Assembly (NCBI GenBank): GCA_963749705.1 | Contig: CAVVNQ010000015.1 | Location: 384,001-448,000, forward strand | Origin: an uncultured Chloroflexia bacterium | GTDB taxonomy: Bacteria; Chloroflexota; Limnocylindria; Limnocylindrales; CSP1-4 | Length of the DNA stretch: 64,000 bases | Direction: 5' to 3' | In this document: piece after piece, positions 3,504-25,106 of the stretch | Layout: every line of letters begins with the position of its first letter | How positions within the stretch are numbered: position 1 is the first letter of the stretch | Notes under the pieces: model-generated | Told to the model about the DNA's origin: nothing | Databases searched by the model: none | The model's input: only the letters and a program-made list of their open reading frames with translations | Made by a program: the position numbers and the translations under genes

Positions 3504-3892
3504 CCGGGGCGGCCGGAGCGAGCCGGCCTATCCAGGCACGCCGCCCGCCGCAGCGGAGCTGCGTCGCGTGTCGCACGGCGCGGCCCAAGCGCGACCTGGT
3601 CCGGATCGTGCGTGCGCCCGACGGCACCATCGCGATCGATCCGACCGGCCGGGCCGCCGGGCGCGGCGCATACCTGTGCCACGACGCGGCCTGCTGGCAG
3701 ACCGCCGGCCGGAAGCGCGCCCTCGAGCATGCGCTCGGGACGTCGCTGCCGGGATCCATCATCGAACTTCTCGCGGCCGGGCCCGACGCGGTCGCCGCCA
3801 CCAACAGCAACCATCCGGCGGGTGCCCAGGGCGCCCGCCCCATCCCGAACCCCGACCCGATCACCGAAGGAGGAGCCCGTGGCCAGGAGTAG
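3500..3892 (+). CDS. ylxR: YlxR (DUF448) RNA-binding protein; start codon uncertain
   Basis: PQRSCVACR...KRDLVRIVR...GRGAYLC motifs; lies between nusA and infB; first canonical start (3608) is downstream of the conserved N-terminal motif. Confidence 0.85.
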   Translation, partial: VAGAAGASRPIQARRPPQRSCVACRTARPKRDLVRIVRAPDGTIAIDPTGRAAGRGAYLCHDAACWQTAGRKRALEHALGTSLPGSIIELLAAGPDAVAATNSNHPAGAQGARPIPNPDPITEGGARGQE

Positions 3893-5786
3893 GAGCGGTA
3901 CCCGCGGCCGACGCGGCCCGCGCAAGCCCCCGCGACGTACCGGCAGCTTCGCGCCGGGCGCCGTCACGGTCGTCGATCCGAGCGAGCGCGGCCCGATCGA
4001 GCTGCCCTCGACGATCACCGTCAAGGAGCTCGCCGAGCTGCTCGGAGTCAACCCCGCGGACATCATCCGCGAGCTCATCAAGAGCGGCATCTTCGCGACC
4101 ATCAACCAGCTCATCGACCGCGACACGGCGTCGCTGGTCGCGGAGGAGCTGGGTTACGAGGTCGCCGAGGCCAACGCCGCCTCGGCCAGCGCCGAGGACG
4201 AGGAGGGAAGCGGCCCGCCCGCGGAGGCGACCAAGGAGGTCCTGTTCGAGGAGGACGCCGCCGCCGACCTCGTCGGCCGTGCGCCGATCGTGACCGTCAT
4301 GGGCCACGTCGACCATGGCAAGACCAGCCTGCTCGACGCGATCCGCTCGACCACGGTCGCGGCGGGGGAGCGTGGCGGGATCACGCAGCACATCGGTGCG
4401 TCGGAGATCACCACCAAGGACGGCAAGCGGCTCGTGTTCCTCGACACCCCGGGTCACGAGGCGTTCACCTCGATGCGTGCCCGTGGTGCGCGCGTCACCG
4501 ACATCGCCGTGATCGTCGTCGCGGCCGATGACGGCGTGATGCCCCAGACGCTCGAGGCGATCAGCCATGCCAAGGCGGCCAAGGTGCCGCTGGTGATCGC
4601 GATGAACAAGATCGACCGTGCCGAGGCCAACCCGGACCGGGTTCGGACCGAGCTGGCCGAAGCCGGCGTCGTGGTCGAGGACTACGGTGGCGATACGCCG
4701 CTCGTGCCGGTCTCGGCCAAGACCCGGGTGGGCATCGACGCGCTGCTCGAGATGATCCTGCTCGTGGCGGATCTCCAGGAGCTCAAGGCGAACCCCAAGC
4801 GGTCCGCCATCGGGACGGTGATCGAGGCGCAGCTCACCAAGGGCCGCGGACCCGTCGCGACGATCATCATCCAGACGGGCACGCTGCGCGTCGGCGACAT
4901 CGTCACGGTGGGCAACACCTGGGGCAAGATCAAGGCCCTGGAGAACAGCGAGGGCAAGCGGACCGCGAAGGCCGGCCCCGCGTCCGCCGTCGTCGTGCTC
5001 GGCCTCAACGACGTCCCCGAGGCCGGCGACGTCATGCGCGTCGTGGCCGACGAGAAGGCCGCCCGCGGCGTGGTCGAAGGCCGCAAGATCGAGCAGGCCA
5101 CCCGTGAGGGCGGCGGCGCGAGCCGAGCCACGCTCGAGGACCTGTACCGGCAGATCCAGGCCGGCCAGGCCAAGGAGCTGCGGCTGATCCTCAAGGCCGA
5201 CGTGTCGGGCTCGCTGGGCGCGATCACGCATGCGCTCGAGCAGCTGGGCACGGACGAGGTCAAGATCAACGTCCTGCTCGAGGCCGCGGGCGACATCACC
5301 GACAACGACATCATGCTGGCCACCGCATCGAACGCGATCGTGGTCGGCTTCAACACCGGGATCACCGACACCGCGCGGCGCGAGGCCGAGGCCGAGGGCG
5401 TCGACGTCCGGCAGTACGACATCATCTACAAGCTGACCGACGACATCGATGCCGCCCTCAAGGGCATGCTCGAGCCGGAGATCGTGGAGGTGATCGAGGG
5501 CCGGGCCGAGGTGCGCCAGATCTTCCGGGTGGGCAAGAGCACGGTCATCGCCGGCTGCTACGTCACCGACGGCCGGATCGTCCGCGCCGGCGGCGTCCGC
5601 GTCTGGCGCGGCGGCAAGGTCGTGGCCACCGACCGGATCGAATCGCTGCGGCGCTTCCGGGACGATGTCCGTGAGGTCGCGCAGAACTTCGAGTGCGGCA
5701 TCGGCCTGGTCGGCTACAACGACCTGGTCGAGGGTGACATCATCGAGTGCTTCACCAACCAGACCCGCAGCCGGGTGACCGGCTGA
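3879..5786 (+). CDS. infB: Translation initiation factor IF-2
   Basis: [33 protein letters not shown]; GTG start after AAGGAGGAG. Confidence 0.98.
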
Positions 5787-5839: not shown

Positions 5840-6406
5840 ATGAGCCAGCGTACCCAGCGCGTCGATGAGCTGCTTCGCCAGGAGATCGGTGCGCTGCTGG
5901 CCAAGGAGATCGCGGATCCCCGGATCGGGTTCGTGACCATCACTGAGGTCGAGACAGCGCCCGACCTGCGGCATGCCAAGGTGTGGGTCAGCGTGATCGG
6001 CGGCAAGACCGATCGCGACGAGACCGTACGCGCGCTCCAGCAGGCGATGGGCTACGTGCGGCACCAGCTGGGGCAGCGGCTGCGCATCCGGCGGATCCCG
6101 GAGCTCCACGTCCGGCTCGACGATTCGGCCGAGCGTGGCACCCGGCTGCTGCACCTGATCAACGAGCTCGAGTCGGGTGCGGACCCCGAGGCCATCACCC
6201 CGCTCGACGAGGACCTGCCGACGCCGGTCCAGCGGCTGCCCCACGAGGGCGATACCCCGGACACGGACGCCGGGGAGACGCAGGCGCCGACGCCGGCGCC
6301 GGCCGGCCGCCGGCCGTCGACCCGCCGGGGACCCGGTGGCAGCCGCGCGGGCCGCGGCGCGCCCCCGCGCAGCGAGGCCCGGAAGCCTCGCAGCCACCGC
6401 GGATGA
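5840..6406 (+). CDS. rbfA: 30S ribosome-binding factor A with disordered C-terminal extension
   Basis: RTQRVDELLRQE, DPRIGFVTITEVE, DLRHAKVWVS, RRIPELH; follows infB. Confidence 0.95.
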   Translation: MSQRTQRVDELLRQEIGALLAKEIADPRIGFVTITEVETAPDLRHAKVWVSVIGGKTDRDETVRALQQAMGYVRHQLGQRLRIRRIPELHVRLDDSAERGTRLLHLINELESGADPEAITPLDEDLPTPVQRLPHEGDTPDTDAGETQAPTPAPAGRRPSTRRGPGGSRAGRGAPPRSEARKPRSHRG

Positions 6407-7434
6407 GCACGGCTCTCGTCCTCGCCGACATCGCCCGGTCGGTGGTGCCGGATCCCGTGCTGGCGCGGCTGCGTGGCGCCCGGAACGTGCTGGCCGTCGG
6501 CCATGAGAACCCCGACGCGGACACGCTCGGCGCGACCCTCGCGGTGTGCGCGATCGTGGAGGCGCTGGGCGGCCGCGCGACGCCCGTGTGCACCGACCCG
6601 GTCCCGCCGCTGTACTCGTTCATTCCGGGCGTGGACCGCTTCCGGACGGACCCCGAGCCCGACCAGGCCTACGACCTGGTGGTGATCTCCGACTGCGGCT
6701 CGTTCGAGCGGGTGGGAGACGTCGCCGGGCGCCATGCCGACCTGTTCGCGGCGCTGCCGCACGTGATCATCGATCACCATGCCTCGAACGACGCGGCGGG
6801 CGAGGCCGACTGGATCGATCCCGGCGCTGCGGCGACCTGCGAGCTGGTCACGCTGCTCGCGACCCGGCTGGATGTGCCCCTGGCGACCGGCCACGGGTCG
6901 CTGGCGACCGCGCTGATGGCGGGTGTCGTCATGGACACCGCGACGTTCGCGCATCCGAACGCGACGCCCCGCACGCTCGCCGTCGCAGCGGCGCTCGTCG
7001 AGGCGGGCGCGCCGCTGTCGGACATCTCGCGCCGCCTGTACCGGACGAAGCCCGATTCGCAGCTGCGGCTGTTCGGCCGGGTGCTCGACCGGCTCGAGGC
7101 CACCGATGACCACCTCGTGGTGTGGTCCGACCTGCGGCTGGCCGACCTTGCGGCGACGGGAGCGCTGCCGACCCACTCCGAGGGCATCATCGACCTCCTG
7201 GCGCAGGCCGAGGAGGCGGAGGTGTCGATGCTGCTCAAGGAGCAGGCGGACGGGACGACACGGCTCAGCGTGCGCACCCGGCCCGGGGGCGTGGACGCAA
7301 CGACGCTGACGGGGGTGTTCGGTGGCGGCGGCCACGCCCGGGCGGCCGGCGCCTCGATCGACGCCCCACTGGCAGAGGCCACGGAACGGGCCCGCGAGGT
7401 GGCCGTCCGGCTGGCAGCCCAGGTTCGCCGGTGA
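6403..7434 (+). CDS. nrnA: DHH-family phosphoesterase (NrnA-type nanoRNase/pAp phosphatase)
   Basis: HENPDADTLG, IIDHH, DTATF, GGGGHARAAG motifs; position between rbfA and truB. Confidence 0.88.
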   Translation: MSTALVLADIARSVVPDPVLARLRGARNVLAVGHENPDADTLGATLAVCAIVEALGGRATPVCTDPVPPLYSFIPGVDRFRTDPEPDQAYDLVVISDCGSFERVGDVAGRHADLFAALPHVIIDHHASNDAAGEADWIDPGAAATCELVTLLATRLDVPLATGHGSLATALMAGVVMDTATFAHPNATPRTLAVAAALVEAGAPLSDISRRLYRTKPDSQLRLFGRVLDRLEATDDHLVVWSDLRLADLAATGALPTHSEGIIDLLAQAEEAEVSMLLKEQADGTTRLSVRTRPGGVDATTLTGVFGGGGHARAAGASIDAPLAEATERAREVAVRLAAQVRR

Positions 7435-8414
7435 GGCGGGGCGACCGCAGCGGCGGGCTGGACGGCGTCCTCGTCGTCGCCAAGCCGTCGGGCCCCACCT
7501 CGCACGACGTGGTGAGCCTGGTGCGACGGCTGTCGTCCACGCGGCGGGTCGGCCACGGGGGAACGCTGGATCCGTTCGCCGCGGGCGTGCTGCCGGTGTT
7601 CCTGGGACGGGCGACCCGGCTGGTCGAGTACCACCTCGGGGCGACCAAGTCGTACCGCGCCACGATCTGCTTCGGCGCCACCTCGACCACGGACGATCTC
7701 GACGGCGAGCGGACACCGATCGATGGCCCGCCGGTCACCCGCCCCGCGCTCCAGGCAGCCCTGGGCGCGTTCACCGGTCCGATCCGGCAGGTTCCGCCGG
7801 TGTACAGCGCCGTCCAGATCGCGGGACGCCGGGCGTACCAGATGGCCCGCGCCGGGGAGATCGTCGAGCTGGCACCGCGGGACGTGGTGATCCACTCGCT
7901 GGCGATCCGTGAATGGGACGACAGCGACGCGGAGCGGCCGGTCGCGGTGGTCGATGTCGAGTGCGCCGCCGGCACCTACGTCCGCGCGCTGGCGCGGGAC
8001 ATCGGTGAGCACCTCGGCAGCGGGGCGTACCTCGGCGCCCTCGTCCGCACCGCGTCCGGCGACTTCCGGCTCGATGAAGCGGTGTCGCTGGACGAGCTCC
8101 GCGCCCATGCCGCGGACGGGCCGGCCGGGGTGCTGCGAGCGCTGCGACCCATCGACGCCGGGCTCGAGCACCTTCCCCACGCCCCCGTGACCGACGACGA
8201 GGTCCGGCGCCTGGGCGAGGGCCTGATCACGGCCCCGAAGACGCCGCTCCCGGTCCGCGATGCGCCGCTCGTGCTCGCGGTCGGCAGCGACGGGCGGGTT
8301 GTCGCCGTGTGCCGCGCGGTCAGCGGCGCGCTCCATCCTCACAAGGTGCTGGCGGATCGCCCGGCCGAGGCCGGACGGCCGCTCCGCCGCGCGACCGCGG
8401 GCGACGCGGTCTGA
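7431..8414 (+). CDS. truB: tRNA pseudouridine(55) synthase
   Basis: KPSGPTSHDVV, VGHGGTLDPFAAGVL, QVPPVYSA, GTYVRALARD. Confidence 0.96.
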   Translation: MRRGDRSGGLDGVLVVAKPSGPTSHDVVSLVRRLSSTRRVGHGGTLDPFAAGVLPVFLGRATRLVEYHLGATKSYRATICFGATSTTDDLDGERTPIDGPPVTRPALQAALGAFTGPIRQVPPVYSAVQIAGRRAYQMARAGEIVELAPRDVVIHSLAIREWDDSDAERPVAVVDVECAAGTYVRALARDIGEHLGSGAYLGALVRTASGDFRLDEAVSLDELRAHAADGPAGVLRALRPIDAGLEHLPHAPVTDDEVRRLGEGLITAPKTPLPVRDAPLVLAVGSDGRVVAVCRAVSGALHPHKVLADRPAEAGRPLRRATAGDAV

Positions 8415-22071: not shown

Positions 22072-22125
22072 CCGCCGGTCAAAGAAGAGGAATAGGTTCA
22101 GATTCAGTTCGTGTCGGAGGATCGA

Positions 22126-22395
22126 GTGCCGCTCGCGCGGGAGAAGAAGCAAGAGGTCATCGAGTCGTTCGCCGTCAAGGACGGTGACACCGGCTCCCCA
22201 GAGGTCCAGGTCGCGCTCCTGACGGAGCGGATCCGGGACCTGACGGAGCACCTCCGCAGCTTTCCGAAGGACAACCATTCGCGCCGCGGCCTCCTCAAGC
22301 TCGTGGGACAGCGCCGGCGCCTTCTCGCCTACCTGGTGAAGAAGGACGCCACACGCTACCGGGCCGTCATCGGCTCGCTCGGACTCCGCCGCTAG
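22126..22395 (+). CDS. rpsO: 30S ribosomal protein S15
   Basis: [41 protein letters not shown]. Confidence 0.98.
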
Positions 22396-22408: not shown

Positions 22409-22436
22409 GAGGCCCCGGGTGTGATCCCGGGGTCTT
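22409..22436 (+). terminator. Hairpin between rpsO and pnp
   Basis: GAGGCCCCGGG-tgtgat-CCCGGGGTCTT. Confidence 0.55.
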
Positions 22437-22520
22437 GCGCATCCGGCCCCCTTGCCGCCGCCCGGCCCCATTCGCCCCAGGTCGCTCCCACCCCGTCACG
22501 ACCAAGGAGGTCGTTTACAC

Positions 22521-25106
22521 GTGCCCACACCCACCACGCTCGAGATCGAGTTCGGCGGTCGTACGCTCATCCTCGAGACCGGCAGGCTCGCCGGCAATGC
22601 CGGTGGCGCCGTCACGGCCCGCTACGGCGACTCGATGGTCCTCGGGACCGCCAACCGCTCCCAGCCGCGGCCGGGCCTCGACTTCTTCCCGCTCACCGTG
22701 GATTTCGAGGAGCGGATGTACGCCGCGGGCAAGATCCCGGGCGGCTTCATCAAGCGCGAGGGCCGCGCATCCGAGGCTGCGACGCTCGCGGCGCGCCTCA
22801 CCGACCGCCCGATCCGCCCGCTGTTCCCCGAGGGGTACAAGGATGACGTCCAGATCGTCATCACGACCCTGTCCACGGACCAGGAGAACGAGCTCGACGT
22901 GCTCGGCACGATCGCTGCGTCGGCGGCGCTGACGATCAGCGAGATCCCGTTCCAGGGCCCGATCGGTGCGGTCCACGTCGGCCGGATCGACGGCGAGTTC
23001 GTCCTCAACCCGACCACCAGCCAGCTCGCGGAGTCGGAGCTCGACCTGATCGTGTCCGGCACCCGCGACGCGATCATGATGGTCGAGGCGGGCGTCAAGA
23101 TCCTGCCCGAGGACGTGATGGCCGAGGCGATCATGTTCGCCCACCGGTCGATCGCCCCGCTCATCGACATGCAGGAGGAGCTGCGCGAGAAGGTCGGCAA
23201 GCCCAAGCGCCTGCCGTACCTCGAGCCGCTCACCGACTCCGTGCTCAAGTTCGCCGAGCGGGCCCGCGCCGGCGGCGAGTTCGTCGTCGTCGACGTCGAG
23301 ACCACCGGCACCGACCCGCAGCTGGCCGACCTCGTCGAGGTCGCCGCCGTCCGCGTCAAGGGCGGCAAGATCACCGACCGGTGGTCGACCTTCGTCAACC
23401 CCGGGCGCCCGATCGTCGGCAACCAGATGCACGGCATCACCGACAAGGACGTCAAGGGCGCGCCCAGCCCGGCCGAGGCGGCCCGCAAGGCGCTCGACTT
23501 CGTCGGCGGCGCCCCGCTCGTCGGCCACTCGGTCGGCTTCGACATCGCGTTCCTCGAGGAGGCGCTGGGCGACGGCACCCGCATCGAGCAGGGCACCTAC
23601 CTGGACACGCTGGTCATCGCTCGCGAGGGATACCCGGATCTCGAGAACTACAAGCTCGGGACCCTGGCGGCGTTCTTCGGCATCGAGCTGACCGCCAGCC
23701 ACCGCGCCCTGCCGGACGCGGAGGCCACCGCCAACCTGCTGATCTGGTTCGCCAAGGACCTCCCCGGCCGCATCGACACCCTGGCCGACGGGATCGCGAC
23801 CGCGGTCCGCGCCACGCGCAAGGACAAGGACGAGTCGGCGAAGCTGCTCGAGGCCGCCCGCCGCAACGCGCGCTTCAGCAAGAGCCTGTTCGGGCTGGTG
23901 CAGAAGAAGACCGTGCGCAAGCTCGTCCTCGACGAGGGCGTCCGGATGGACGGCCGCGCGCTCGATGAGATCCGCCCGATCTCGGTCGAGGTCGGCCTCC
24001 TCCCGCGTGCCCACGGCTCAGGCCTGTTCACCCGCGGCCAGACGCAGGCGCTGACCGTCGCCACGCTCGGCGCGTCCTCGGACGTCCAGCGGATCGACAC
24101 GATCAGCCCCGAGACCGAGAAGCGGTACCTCCACCACTACAACTTCCCGCCCTACAGCACCGGCGAGAACAAGCCCATGCGCGGCCCCAGCCGGCGCGAC
24201 ATCGGGCACGGCAACCTCGCCGGACGAGCGCTGCTCCCCGTCCTGCCGAGTCAGGAAGAGTTCCCGTACGTCATCCGCCTCGTGTCCGAGGTGGTGGCCG
24301 GCAACGGCTCGACGTCGATGGCCTCGACCTGCGGCTCGACCCTCGCCCTGATGGACGCGGGCGTGCCGATCAAGGCGCCGGTGGCCGGTGCGGCGATGGG
24401 CCTCGTGCTCGACGCCGAGACCGGCAACTTCGTGGTCCTCACCGACATCCTCGGCAAGGAGGACTCGATCGGCGACATGGACTTCAAGGTCACCGGGACC
24501 ACCGAGGGCATCACCGCCCTCCAGATGGACATCAAGGTCAAGGGCATCGACGAGCGGGTCATCCGCGAGGGGCTCAAGCAGGCGCTCGCCGCCCGCCTGT
24601 TCATCCTCGACAAGATGACCGCGGTGCTGCCGAGCGCCCGCGAGGAGATGTCCGACTTCGCGCCGCGGATCATCACGATCAAGATCAACCCCGAGAAGAT
24701 CCGCGAGATCATCGGCAAGGGTGGGTCGATGATCCGCAAGATCCAGGAGGAGACCCAGACCGAGATCAACGTCGAGGACGACGGCACCGTGGAGATCGCG
24801 GCCGTCTCCGGCGAGAACTCGCGCAAGGCGATCACCTGGATCGAGAGCCTGACCCGCGAGGTCGAGGTCGGTGCGCTGTACCTGGGCAAGGTCACCCGGC
24901 TGATGACCTTCGGCGCGTTCGTCGAGATCCTGCCGGGCAAGGAAGGCCTGGTCCGGATCGGCGAGCTGGCCGACTACCACGTGCCGTCCGTCGAGGACGT
25001 CGTGTCGGTCGGCGACGAGGTGATGGTGGTGGTCATGGAGATCGACCGCCAGGGCCGCGTCAACCTGTCCCGCAAGGCCGCCATGCAGCGGCATCTCGCC
25101 AAGTAG
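22521..25106 (+). CDS. pnp: Polyribonucleotide nucleotidyltransferase (PNPase) with an inserted DEDDh exonuclease domain
   Basis: DFFPLTVD, AAGKIPGGFIKREG, DRPIRPLFP, HGSGLFTRGQTQ, SRRDIGHG, DMDFKV, KH (IIGKGG) and S1 (FGAFVEI) domains; 861 aa with a DnaQ-like insert at 23280-23750. Confidence 0.97.
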   Translation: MPTPTTLEIEFGGRTLILETGRLAGNAGGAVTARYGDSMVLGTANRSQPRPGLDFFPLTVDFEERMYAAGKIPGGFIKREGRASEAATLAARLTDRPIRPLFPEGYKDDVQIVITTLSTDQENELDVLGTIAASAALTISEIPFQGPIGAVHVGRIDGEFVLNPTTSQLAESELDLIVSGTRDAIMMVEAGVKILPEDVMAEAIMFAHRSIAPLIDMQEELREKVGKPKRLPYLEPLTDSVLKFAERARAGGEFVVVDVETTGTDPQLADLVEVAAVRVKGGKITDRWSTFVNPGRPIVGNQMHGITDKDVKGAPSPAEAARKALDFVGGAPLVGHSVGFDIAFLEEALGDGTRIEQGTYLDTLVIAREGYPDLENYKLGTLAAFFGIELTASHRALPDAEATANLLIWFAKDLPGRIDTLADGIATAVRATRKDKDESAKLLEAARRNARFSKSLFGLVQKKTVRKLVLDEGVRMDGRALDEIRPISVEVGLLPRAHGSGLFTRGQTQALTVATLGASSDVQRIDTISPETEKRYLHHYNFPPYSTGENKPMRGPSRRDIGHGNLAGRALLPVLPSQEEFPYVIRLVSEVVAGNGSTSMASTCGSTLALMDAGVPIKAPVAGAAMGLVLDAETGNFVVLTDILGKEDSIGDMDFKVTGTTEGITALQMDIKVKGIDERVIREGLKQALAARLFILDKMTAVLPSAREEMSDFAPRIITIKINPEKIREIIGKGGSMIRKIQEETQTEINVEDDGTVEIAAVSGENSRKAITWIESLTREVEVGALYLGKVTRLMTFGAFVEILPGKEGLVRIGELADYHVPSVEDVVSVGDEVMVVVMEIDRQGRVNLSRKAAMQRHLAK

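Follow-up and report, generated by a model that had tools for sequence, protein, structure and literature searches.

A DEDDh exonuclease domain nested in the polynucleotide phosphorylase of an uncultured Chloroflexota lineage

Polynucleotide phosphorylase (PNPase) is a phosphorolytic RNase which, in its canonical form, combines a first RNase PH module, an all-alpha domain, a second RNase PH module, a KH and an S1 domain. A stretch of 64,000 nucleotides from an uncultured Chloroflexia bacterium (contig CAVVNQ010000015.1, positions 384,001 to 448,000), hereafter termed the window, encodes a PNPase that shares the RNase PH, KH and S1 domains, their motifs and the gene position after rpsO with the canonical enzyme, from which it differs by about 160 extra residues nested in the all-alpha domain. 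This locus thus raises the question of what these residues encode, how they came to reside in an RNA-degrading enzyme and what purpose they may serve. We find that the sole PNPase of this lineage carries in its linker a folded and catalytically complete DEDDh exonuclease domain that is kept under selection.

A PNPase with a second nuclease domain

The organization of the gene and its product is as follows, with positions referring to the window:

22521..25106 (+): pnp coding sequence, 861 residues and stop; the genome's only PNPase, following rpsO
22521..23210 (+): first RNase PH module, residues 1–230 (Pfam RNase_PH and RNase_PH_C, the latter at 146–209; canonical PNPases align over residues 6–230)
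23211..23276 (+): linker and short helix ahead of the insert, residues 231–252 (not in canonical relatives, by alignment; AlphaFold2 helix 239–249)
23277..23750 (+): DEDDh (DnaQ-like, PF00929) 3'-5' exonuclease domain, residues 253–410 (from Pfam, AlphaFold2, Foldseek and substitution rates)
23292..23300 (+): Exo I codons D258 (23292–23294) and E260 (23298–23300); D and E each in 175 of 175 covering sequences
23541..23543 (+): Exo II codon D341; D in 176 of 176 covering sequences
23700..23717 (+): Exo III codons H394 (23700–23702) and D399 (23715–23717); H in 176 of 176 and D in 175 of 175 covering sequences
23751..23930 (+): helical arm and remodelled rest of the all-alpha domain, residues 411–470 (AlphaFold2 helices 396–431, 436–450 and 454–472)
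23931..24620 (+): second (catalytic) RNase PH module, residues 471–700 (Pfam RNase_PH 483–616; motifs RR-IGHG, NGSTSMAS and GDMDFK)
24666..24845 (+): KH domain, residues 716–775 (Pfam KH_1 718–775, E 6.8e-11)
24861..25076 (+): S1 domain, residues 781–852 (Pfam S1, E 7.3e-17)

An earlier note on this DNA had described a pnp gene after rpsO that encodes 861 residues with an exonuclease domain in frame, a description with which the open reading frame, the start site and the Pfam matches agree. Its motifs and codon coordinates are exact (first nucleotides 23292 for D258, 23298 for E260, 23541 for D341, 23700 for H394 and 23715 for D399), and the composition is host-like, with a GC content of 0.70–0.73 in the insert compared to 0.67–0.72 in its flanks and no step at the insert.

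The body of the protein retains the features of a PNPase. In a Pfam scan of the 861 residues we find the complete domain set, with two RNase_PH matches (E 2.8e-50), two RNase_PH_C matches, KH_1 and S1, and the protein passes the NCBIfam PNPase equivalogs NF008805 with 941.8 bits (cut-off 471) and TIGR03591 with 938.5 bits (cut-off 525). The motifs RR-IGHG, NGS-SMAS and GDMDFK of the second RNase PH module are unchanged in 24 of 24 aligned PNPases, irrespective of whether these contain the insert, with invariance extending to R558, R559, G562, H563, G564, N595, G596, S597, S599, M600, D648, D652, D654 and K656. We take these motifs (RR-GHG, NGS-SM and D-x5-D-x-K) to bind phosphate and metal as their equivalents do in E. 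coli PNPase. With this invariance and an equivalog score of twice the cut-off, the proposal that the PNPase motifs are intact has held up.

The inserted residues cover the entire Pfam profile RNase_T PF00929 (residues 255–407, profile positions 1–164 of 164, E 3.8e-26, 93 bits compared to a cut-off of 24) and also exceed the cut-off of the dnaq domain model TIGR00573 (80.5 compared to 71.5). Their H-x4-D motif is the one that defines the DEDDh subtype. Within a set of 178 sequences, consisting of 148 database proteins, the window and 29 loci, there is no substitution at D258, E260, D341, H394 or D399; 174 sequences contain all five residues and the other four are fragments with gaps at catalytic positions. 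The completeness of the DEDDh domain, a second element of the earlier description, is thus confirmed. An AlphaFold2 model of residues 226–482 has a predicted local distance difference test score (pLDDT) of 90.8, with about 90 for the exonuclease domain, and in Foldseek searches it identifies DinG of S. aureus as closest neighbour (3e-12), followed by PolC with a root mean square deviation of 2.0 Å over 166 columns and epsilon with 2.4 Å. The Foldseek probability is 1.00 for DinG, PolC, epsilon and RNase T, the latter ranking lower (3e-8).

The position of the insert within the linker is defined by both profile and model. Only the C-terminal half of the all-alpha family PF03726 is recovered (residues 447–479, profile positions 48–80 of 81), with 22.6 bits just below the cut-off of 24.6. 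In the model, the helix of Exo III continues as a single helix of about 36 residues (396–431), which is followed by two further helices. Since these two helices match the end of a normal all-alpha domain, the insertion appears to have occurred after the first helix of the linker. The helices were obtained in both predictions: helix 14–24 of the insert model corresponds to helix 239–249 of the full-length model, and helices 171–206, 211–225 and 229–247 to helices 396–431, 436–450 and 454–472. As judged from the divided profile and from predicted helices on both sides, the insert interrupts and reshapes the all-alpha domain, in accordance with the location inside the linker proposed earlier.

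Distribution, descent and kinship of the insert

We have identified relatives of the insert in Chloroflexota genomes, in a global sequence library queried with the insert and in ESM Atlas clusters, a census whose design would miss independent insertions into PNPases outside of Chloroflexota. Families within the class, which are Limnocylindria-like Chloroflexota, are designated f1 to f5, with f1 being the family of the window and f2 belonging to the same order. The class-wide tallies of the insert, of PF13307 and of PF00929 include some unpublished genomes, whereas the sequences that were fetched and aligned come from others. Counting all types of matches, the insert query finds 386 of 401 class genomes, which distribute as follows:

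f1: 137 of 137 genomes; strong matches in open frames of about 860–1000 residues
f2 (genomes of 1.0–1.4 Mb): 16 of 16; strong matches, PNPase context as in f1
f4: 143 of 153, about 139 at E ≤ 1e-29, 4 weak only and 10 without match; PNPase 62% identical over residues 7–861
f3: 87 of 92, all weak (1e-8 to 1e-28); exonuclease at the N-terminus of a DinG-type helicase with 867 residues
f5: 2 of 2, weak; N-terminal DinG exonuclease as in f3

A full-length PNPase surrounds the insert in 28 of 28 fetched loci from three families and also in the genomes G003, G009 and G011. The PNPases of f3 and f5 are canonical, with frames of 737–749 residues and about 69 residues where the query has 231. A protein search with residues 235–430 yielded 1704 matches at E ≤ 0.001 among 7999 scored candidates, and in 120 of 120 listed relatives PF00929 and PF01138 occur together, mostly in proteins of 859–864 residues with insert identities of 75–93%. 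The named relatives are Chloroflexi/Chloroflexota or Candidatus Limnocylindrales bacteria, with one cluster from Candidatus Limnocylindrus. A scan of 401 genomes of the phylum with the insert gave matches at E ≤ 1e-30 in 23 of 23 f1, 4 of 4 f2 and 17 of 17 f4 genomes and in only three of the other 356, where the PNPase is canonical and the exonuclease is located elsewhere. Every ESM Atlas cluster combining RNase_PH and RNase_T is mostly Chloroflexota. The search of the global library returned 49 representatives at E ≤ 1e-30, of which five were inspected: P0128, P0124, P0139 and P0158 are PNPases or fragments thereof and P0144 is an uninformative fragment. The latter (273 residues, 49% identical) had been considered as a free-standing relative; it is encoded on a contig of 943 base pairs, its tail lacks any match and it was treated as a fragment. 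The tier below, at 40–46% identity, contains PolC, FAN1/VRR-NUC fusions and other architectures.

The continuity of the gene is illustrated by library contigs from RNA (X1 and X4, one study) and DNA (X2 and X7, other studies), which cover 28–29 of 30 bins of the gene and bridge both insert junctions, as in X1 (23157–23441), X4 (23652–24019) and X7 (23118–23432). Contig joints such as 23132 to 24659 or 23210 to 24135 were considered as an insert-less form and rejected, as their sides comprise 21–30 letters or foreign letters lie between them. We read these joints, none of which excises the insert cleanly, as PNPases of other organisms. Misassembly, which had been named as a possible refutation of the architecture, is contradicted by the presence of the insert in hundreds of independent assemblies and by junctions bridged in four runs from three studies.

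Phylogenetic trees point to a single event. In a PNPase tree calculated without the insert columns (28 rows, 673 columns), the 22 insert-bearing rows are all joined with support of 100/99, and this clade is sister to the canonical f3 and f5 rows (100/99) when rooted on other Chloroflexota. The inserts themselves form one clade (99/98), which is split between f4 and f1 plus f2 in the same way as the PNPase core. This concordance indicates that the insert was gained once in a common ancestor of the three families and descended vertically thereafter. The ratio of non-synonymous to synonymous substitution rates (dN/dS), as calculated for the 15 pairs that six genomes of the window's genus allow, amounts to 0.165 in the exonuclease domain, compared to 0.178 for the first and 0.120 for the second RNase PH module, 0.205 for the KH and S1 region and 0.426 for the helical arm (residues 411–470), which is the least constrained part of the protein. 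The insert is also kept in the 16 f2 genomes despite their size of 1.0–1.4 Mb. By these measures, the exonuclease domain is under purifying selection and appears to have been maintained since its capture.

The kinship of the insert, which the earlier note had proposed to examine against DnaQ, the PolC and DinG exonucleases, RNase T and Orn, points away from the latter two. Its sequence matches in the PDB (11 at E ≤ 1e-3) include the PolC exonuclease (9qpc, 3.4e-23; 2p1j, 1.9e-22), S. aureus DinG (1.8e-14), Cas2-DEDDh and epsilon, and its NCBIfam ranking is headed by PRK07883-type DEDD proteins, PolC and DinG. The equivalog levels of individual members of this clade are not reached, neither for epsilon (insert alone: TIGR01406, 75 compared to 222.7 bits; NF004316, 69.9 compared to 196) nor for DinG (NF005981, 127.8 compared to a cut-off of 789), and Pfam finds no helicase family and no match to the DEDDy family PF01612 in the protein. 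Judged by sequence, the insert is a member of the PolC/DinG/epsilon clade and not of the Orn/RNase T clade.

The genome containing the window (3.6 Mb on 22 contigs, 88% complete) harbors the PNPase insert as its sole PF00929 match and three RNase_PH domains, two in pnp and one in a distinct RNase PH gene (contig 3). Family searches in this 88% complete assembly found no RNB family, no DEDDy PF01612 and no DinG helicase PF13307, and the PF00929 search found no stand-alone DnaQ/epsilon homologue; proofreading during replication presumably lies with a different domain, for which PHP of DnaE is a candidate. Across the class, RNB (RNase II/R, PF00773) was found in one of 121 genomes, at a contig edge in an assembly with 6% contamination. 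By appearance, PNPase and RNase PH are the main 3' exoribonucleases of the lineage. Exactly one PF00929 match was obtained in 31 of 37 f1 and 36 of 40 f4 genomes. PF13307 is present in 38 of 38 f3 genomes and 1 of 1 f5 genomes compared to 1 of 36 in f1, 0 of 5 in f2 and 1 of 40 in f4, and the DEDDh domain of f3 and f5 constitutes the N-terminus of a Firmicute-type DinG (L016:3491-6094 on the + strand, G001 and G013). The class thus typically contains one DEDDh domain per genome, whose host is either DinG or PNPase. As observations at the margins of this pattern, the f1 genome G086 (C10:19756-22632) contains a frame of 2041 residues with a weak PF00929 match and a match to the helicase family PF13307. 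This frame may encode a DinG-like fusion of giant size that differs from the f3 and f5 proteins. Four of five small f2 genomes contain an extra DnaQ-like frame beside the insert, with 206 residues in G011 (match at C2:301392-301853), G056 and G065 and 246 residues in G104.

Whether the domain was derived from DinG was addressed in trees that all left out 110 of the 120 close PNPase relatives (P0002–P0121) and L003. In a quick tree, the inserts stand apart from other DEDDh groups. In approximately unbiased (AU) tests, from which seven fragment rows were removed, the constraint that joins the inserts with the DinG exonucleases of the class was not rejected (p-AU 0.79, log-likelihood 41.7 above the quick free tree), and neither was the control that joins them with PolC (p 0.33, log-likelihood –27.5). 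Both DinG and PolC are thus compatible with the tests as donor. In a careful tree of 61 rows, from which short and mid-length rows except 22 random ones were removed, the neighbors of the inserts, with weak support (82/90), are L031 and L032, two DEDDh proteins of the class that stand alone and one of which is located on a contig of 2 kb.

Proposed function and its alternatives

The catalytic completeness and predicted fold of the DEDDh domain suggest that it is most probably active as a hydrolytic 3'-5' exonuclease. With moderate confidence, we favor the view that this exonuclease is hard-wired to the phosphorolytic PNPase and acts on RNA together with the ring, of which the activity, RNA as substrate and the cooperation with the ring are the parts we infer. 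In such a mechanism, each protomer of a presumed trimer would bear one DEDDh exonuclease in its remodelled all-alpha linker. The KH and S1 domains and the RNase PH ring would capture single-stranded 3' ends of RNA and degrade them by phosphorolysis, and the tethered DEDDh site would add another type of reaction, which requires metal, needs no phosphate and cannot be reversed. It may serve 3' ends that the ring releases or handles poorly, such as short 3' tails, limit oligonucleotides or any substrate at low phosphate or high nucleoside diphosphate concentrations. The outcome would be a nuclease that combines phosphorolysis and hydrolysis in a single polypeptide, in an organism where no RNase II/R or other DEDDh protein was found. 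In solved PNPase structures, the all-alpha domain is located near the active site of the second RNase PH module, on the face opposite to KH and S1, from where the insert could meet released short products or 3' ends.

Several observations weigh against this view. The families closest to the insert (PolC and DinG exonucleases, epsilon and PRK07883) act on DNA, and Orn and RNase T are found neither among the 11 PDB matches at E ≤ 1e-3 nor among the best 25 of 29 NCBIfam models for the insert or the best 25 of 59 for the whole protein. The AlphaFold2 model of the full-length protein is mediocre (pLDDT 70.8, predicted template modelling score 0.63), with values below 50 in the RNase PH cores at residues 56–106 and 488–602 because the underlying alignment is shallow. 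The complementary distribution of DinG and insert amounts to a single observation, since the split is one evolutionary event. The absence of RNase II/R was considered as an explanation of the insert and discarded, as RNB is missing throughout the class (found in one of 121 genomes), including the families with canonical PNPase. A DHH/DHHA1 protein encoded in the window is weakly NrnA-like (72.6 bits compared to a cut-off of 350), and a nanoRNase may thus already exist. The f4 genome G060, which is 92% complete, shows no insert match, and the f3 genome G259 (79% complete, 6% contamination) contains an f1-like insert with 73% identity on a short contig (C380:341-898), which is probably a binning contaminant. 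Finally, the contigs from RNA libraries document presence and continuity of the gene, not its transcription.

A bolder version of the preferred reading, which we regard as tentative, holds that the ancestor of the three families moved its lone DEDDh domain into PNPase and lost DinG, resulting in a self-contained 'mini-exosome'. Such a trimer would possess three sites for phosphorolysis and three for hydrolysis, and its exonucleases, each held on a helical arm of 36 residues on the product side of the ring, would take over stalled or leaving 3' ends. If true, RNA decay would become irreversible and independent of phosphate, a property that would match soil and freshwater habitats poor in phosphate and the missing RNase II/R of the lineage.

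The most serious rival is a domain acting on DNA or RNA:DNA hybrids, which would have inherited the task of the DinG exonuclease, for instance in the trimming of 3' ends of single-stranded DNA or the removal of R-loop RNA at stalled forks, with the PNPase body mainly serving as scaffold for binding nucleic acids. Action on single-stranded DNA had been among the options of the earlier note. We consider this a genuine possibility, if one we would not put first, because the clade of the insert, PolC/DinG/epsilon, is one that acts on DNA. Its nearest relatives are the PolC exonuclease (3.4e-23), DinG (1.8e-14; Foldseek 3e-12), Cas2-DEDDh and epsilon. The helicase domain PF13307 of DinG, a protein that carries the DEDDh domain at its N-terminus in f3 and f5, is nearly absent from f1, f2 and f4 and was not found in the window's own genome, with mostly one DEDDh domain per genome, and a clade of inserts and class DinG exonucleases is compatible with the AU test (p-AU 0.79, log-likelihood +41.7). 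In addition, B. subtilis DinG is reported to degrade single-stranded DNA and the RNA strand of hybrids (PMC12525004). These arguments are countered by the nature of the host protein, which is an RNA enzyme whose KH and S1 domains and motifs for phosphorolysis are intact, and by the careful tree, which groups the inserts weakly (82/90) with stand-alone DEDDh proteins and not with DinG exonucleases. The PolC control was not rejected either (p 0.33), the complementarity with DinG rests on one event and DEDDh enzymes of the PolC/DinG/epsilon clade often cut RNA and DNA alike.

A narrower form of the preferred reading assigns to the domain the role of a dedicated nanoRNase, an equivalent of Orn or REXO2 in cis that would clear only the limit products of PNPase with a length of 2–5 nucleotides. 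The sequential action of a phosphorolytic PNPase and a DEDDh hydrolase in trans is well known, in bacteria with Orn and in mitochondria with REXO2 and PNPase-SUV3, and the proximity of the all-alpha domain to the active site of the second RNase PH module would fit this role, as would the finding of neither Orn nor a further PF00929 protein in the window's genome. We nevertheless regard it as rather unlikely, as the insert resides outside of the Orn/RNase T clade, f3 and f5 manage without such a fusion and the weakly NrnA-like DHH/DHHA1 gene detracts a little from the idea that the domain finishes oligonucleotides.

A non-catalytic role in RNA binding, partner docking or the regulation of PNPase appears very improbable. 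Nothing specific speaks for it beyond the tolerance of the helical domain to change, which is fastest in residues 411–470 (dN/dS 0.426), and it is hard to reconcile with five catalytic residues that remain unsubstituted in 178 sequences from families differing in about 55–60% of the insert, and with a dN/dS of 0.165 in the exonuclease domain. That the insert stems from faulty assembly or binning, or is a selfish element of the intein or mobile type, we dismiss as next to impossible in view of hundreds of independent assemblies, including single-contig genomes, the junctions bridged by contigs of four runs from three studies, the lack of a shift in composition, the joint divergence of insert and host and the absence of intein or homing-endonuclease families in the Pfam scan.

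Comparison with known systems

The closest canonical PNPases are those of the sister families f3 and f5, with 58–63% identity in the core, and insert-bearing forms differ from them also at the C-terminus, where they stop right after S1 without the arginine- and glycine-rich tail of the former. In the same alignment, the tail comprises 40–50 residues (columns 870–921) in the three canonical f3/f5 proteins, and 21 of 21 insert-bearing PNPases end within few residues after S1.

With PolC, the insert shares the clade and the mode of residence, as the PolC exonuclease is likewise inserted into another catalytic domain, illustrated by P0177 where a PHP domain (350–705) encloses RNase_T (438–592). 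In the present case, the host is a phosphorolytic RNase with no proofreading context, and NCBIfam PolC models score 129 compared to a cut-off of 873. The Firmicute-type DinG (S. aureus, 8zef; B. subtilis) is the top structural neighbor of the insert and, PNPase aside, the sole DEDDh host in the class, with a distribution complementary to the insert, but its helicase domain is not found by Pfam in the insert-bearing PNPase.

The RNA exosome of eukaryotes similarly joins an RNase PH-type ring with hydrolytic 3'-5' sites, a likeness that is confined to the concept. The exosome has an inactive ring and keeps its nucleases on subunits of their own, with Rrp6 being of the DEDDy type (PF01612) and Rrp44 of the RNB type, whereas here the motifs of the ring are intact, ring and nuclease share a polypeptide and neither PF01612 nor RNB is matched. 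The earlier description of the protein as 'exosome-like' is thus valid as an analogy for the combination of a PH ring with a hydrolase; it does not extend to homology, as the Rrp6 family PF01612 is without match. Compared to PNPase and its partners Orn or REXO2, the domains of both activities are united in a single protein, whose DEDDh domain falls into the DnaQ/PolC/DinG clade and not into that of Orn/REXO2.

Full-text literature searches found no description of a PNPase-DEDDh fusion, in line with the earlier note, to whose author the architecture was not known as described. Papers naming both PNPase and DEDDh concern separate enzymes, as far as their titles and the openings of their abstracts tell, and by a term search the words PNPase, polynucleotide and DnaQ are absent from the main text of a 2026 genomics paper on the lineage (PMC13212565). 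Public annotations are inconsistent and include 'hypothetical protein', 'DNA polymerase III epsilon subunit family exonuclease' and 'polyribonucleotide nucleotidyltransferase'; the second, an automatic JGI name, reflects the domain only. We are not aware of any PNPase reported to contain an additional catalytic domain with another chemistry.

If the DEDDh site is active, the protein would constitute a natural bacterial counterpart of the exosome's PH ring and hydrolases, although with a ring that is active and with all parts on a single polypeptide, and would offer an experimental handle on why cells pair phosphorolytic and hydrolytic 3' exonucleases, on the limits of PNPase at short tails and limit oligonucleotides and on RNA decay under low phosphate. 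It also shows that an RNA enzyme can become the new host of a domain of the DnaQ/PolC/DinG type, and the pattern of one DEDDh domain per genome in either DinG or PNPase would tie RNA decay to DNA and R-loop maintenance in a lineage that is abundant and uncultured in soil and freshwater.

The pnp locus and its surroundings

Further features of the window that relate to the gene are:

22111..22395 (+): rpsO, ribosomal protein S15, directly upstream of pnp (Pfam Ribosomal_S15, E 1.9e-35)
22504..22510 (+): Shine-Dalgarno sequence AAGGAGG, 10 nucleotides ahead of the GTG start at 22521, read from the sequence
5983..7434 (+): DHH/DHHA1 protein between infB (3612–5786) and truB (7122–8414), with NrnA as best NCBIfam model

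The DHH/DHHA1 protein, which is part of the nusA-infB-truB cluster, is one of two DHH proteins in the genome. The open reading frame enclosing pnp spans 22452..25106 (+), and we assign the start to the GTG at 22521 because of the Shine-Dalgarno sequence at 22504–22510 and of the same first residue in homologues. Between the rpsO stop and the pnp start, inspection by eye reveals a GC-rich hairpin at 22411–22434 (+), with arms GGCCCCGGG and CCCGGGGTC and the loop TGTGAT, which may function as terminator or as site of processing in the leader of rpsO-pnp.

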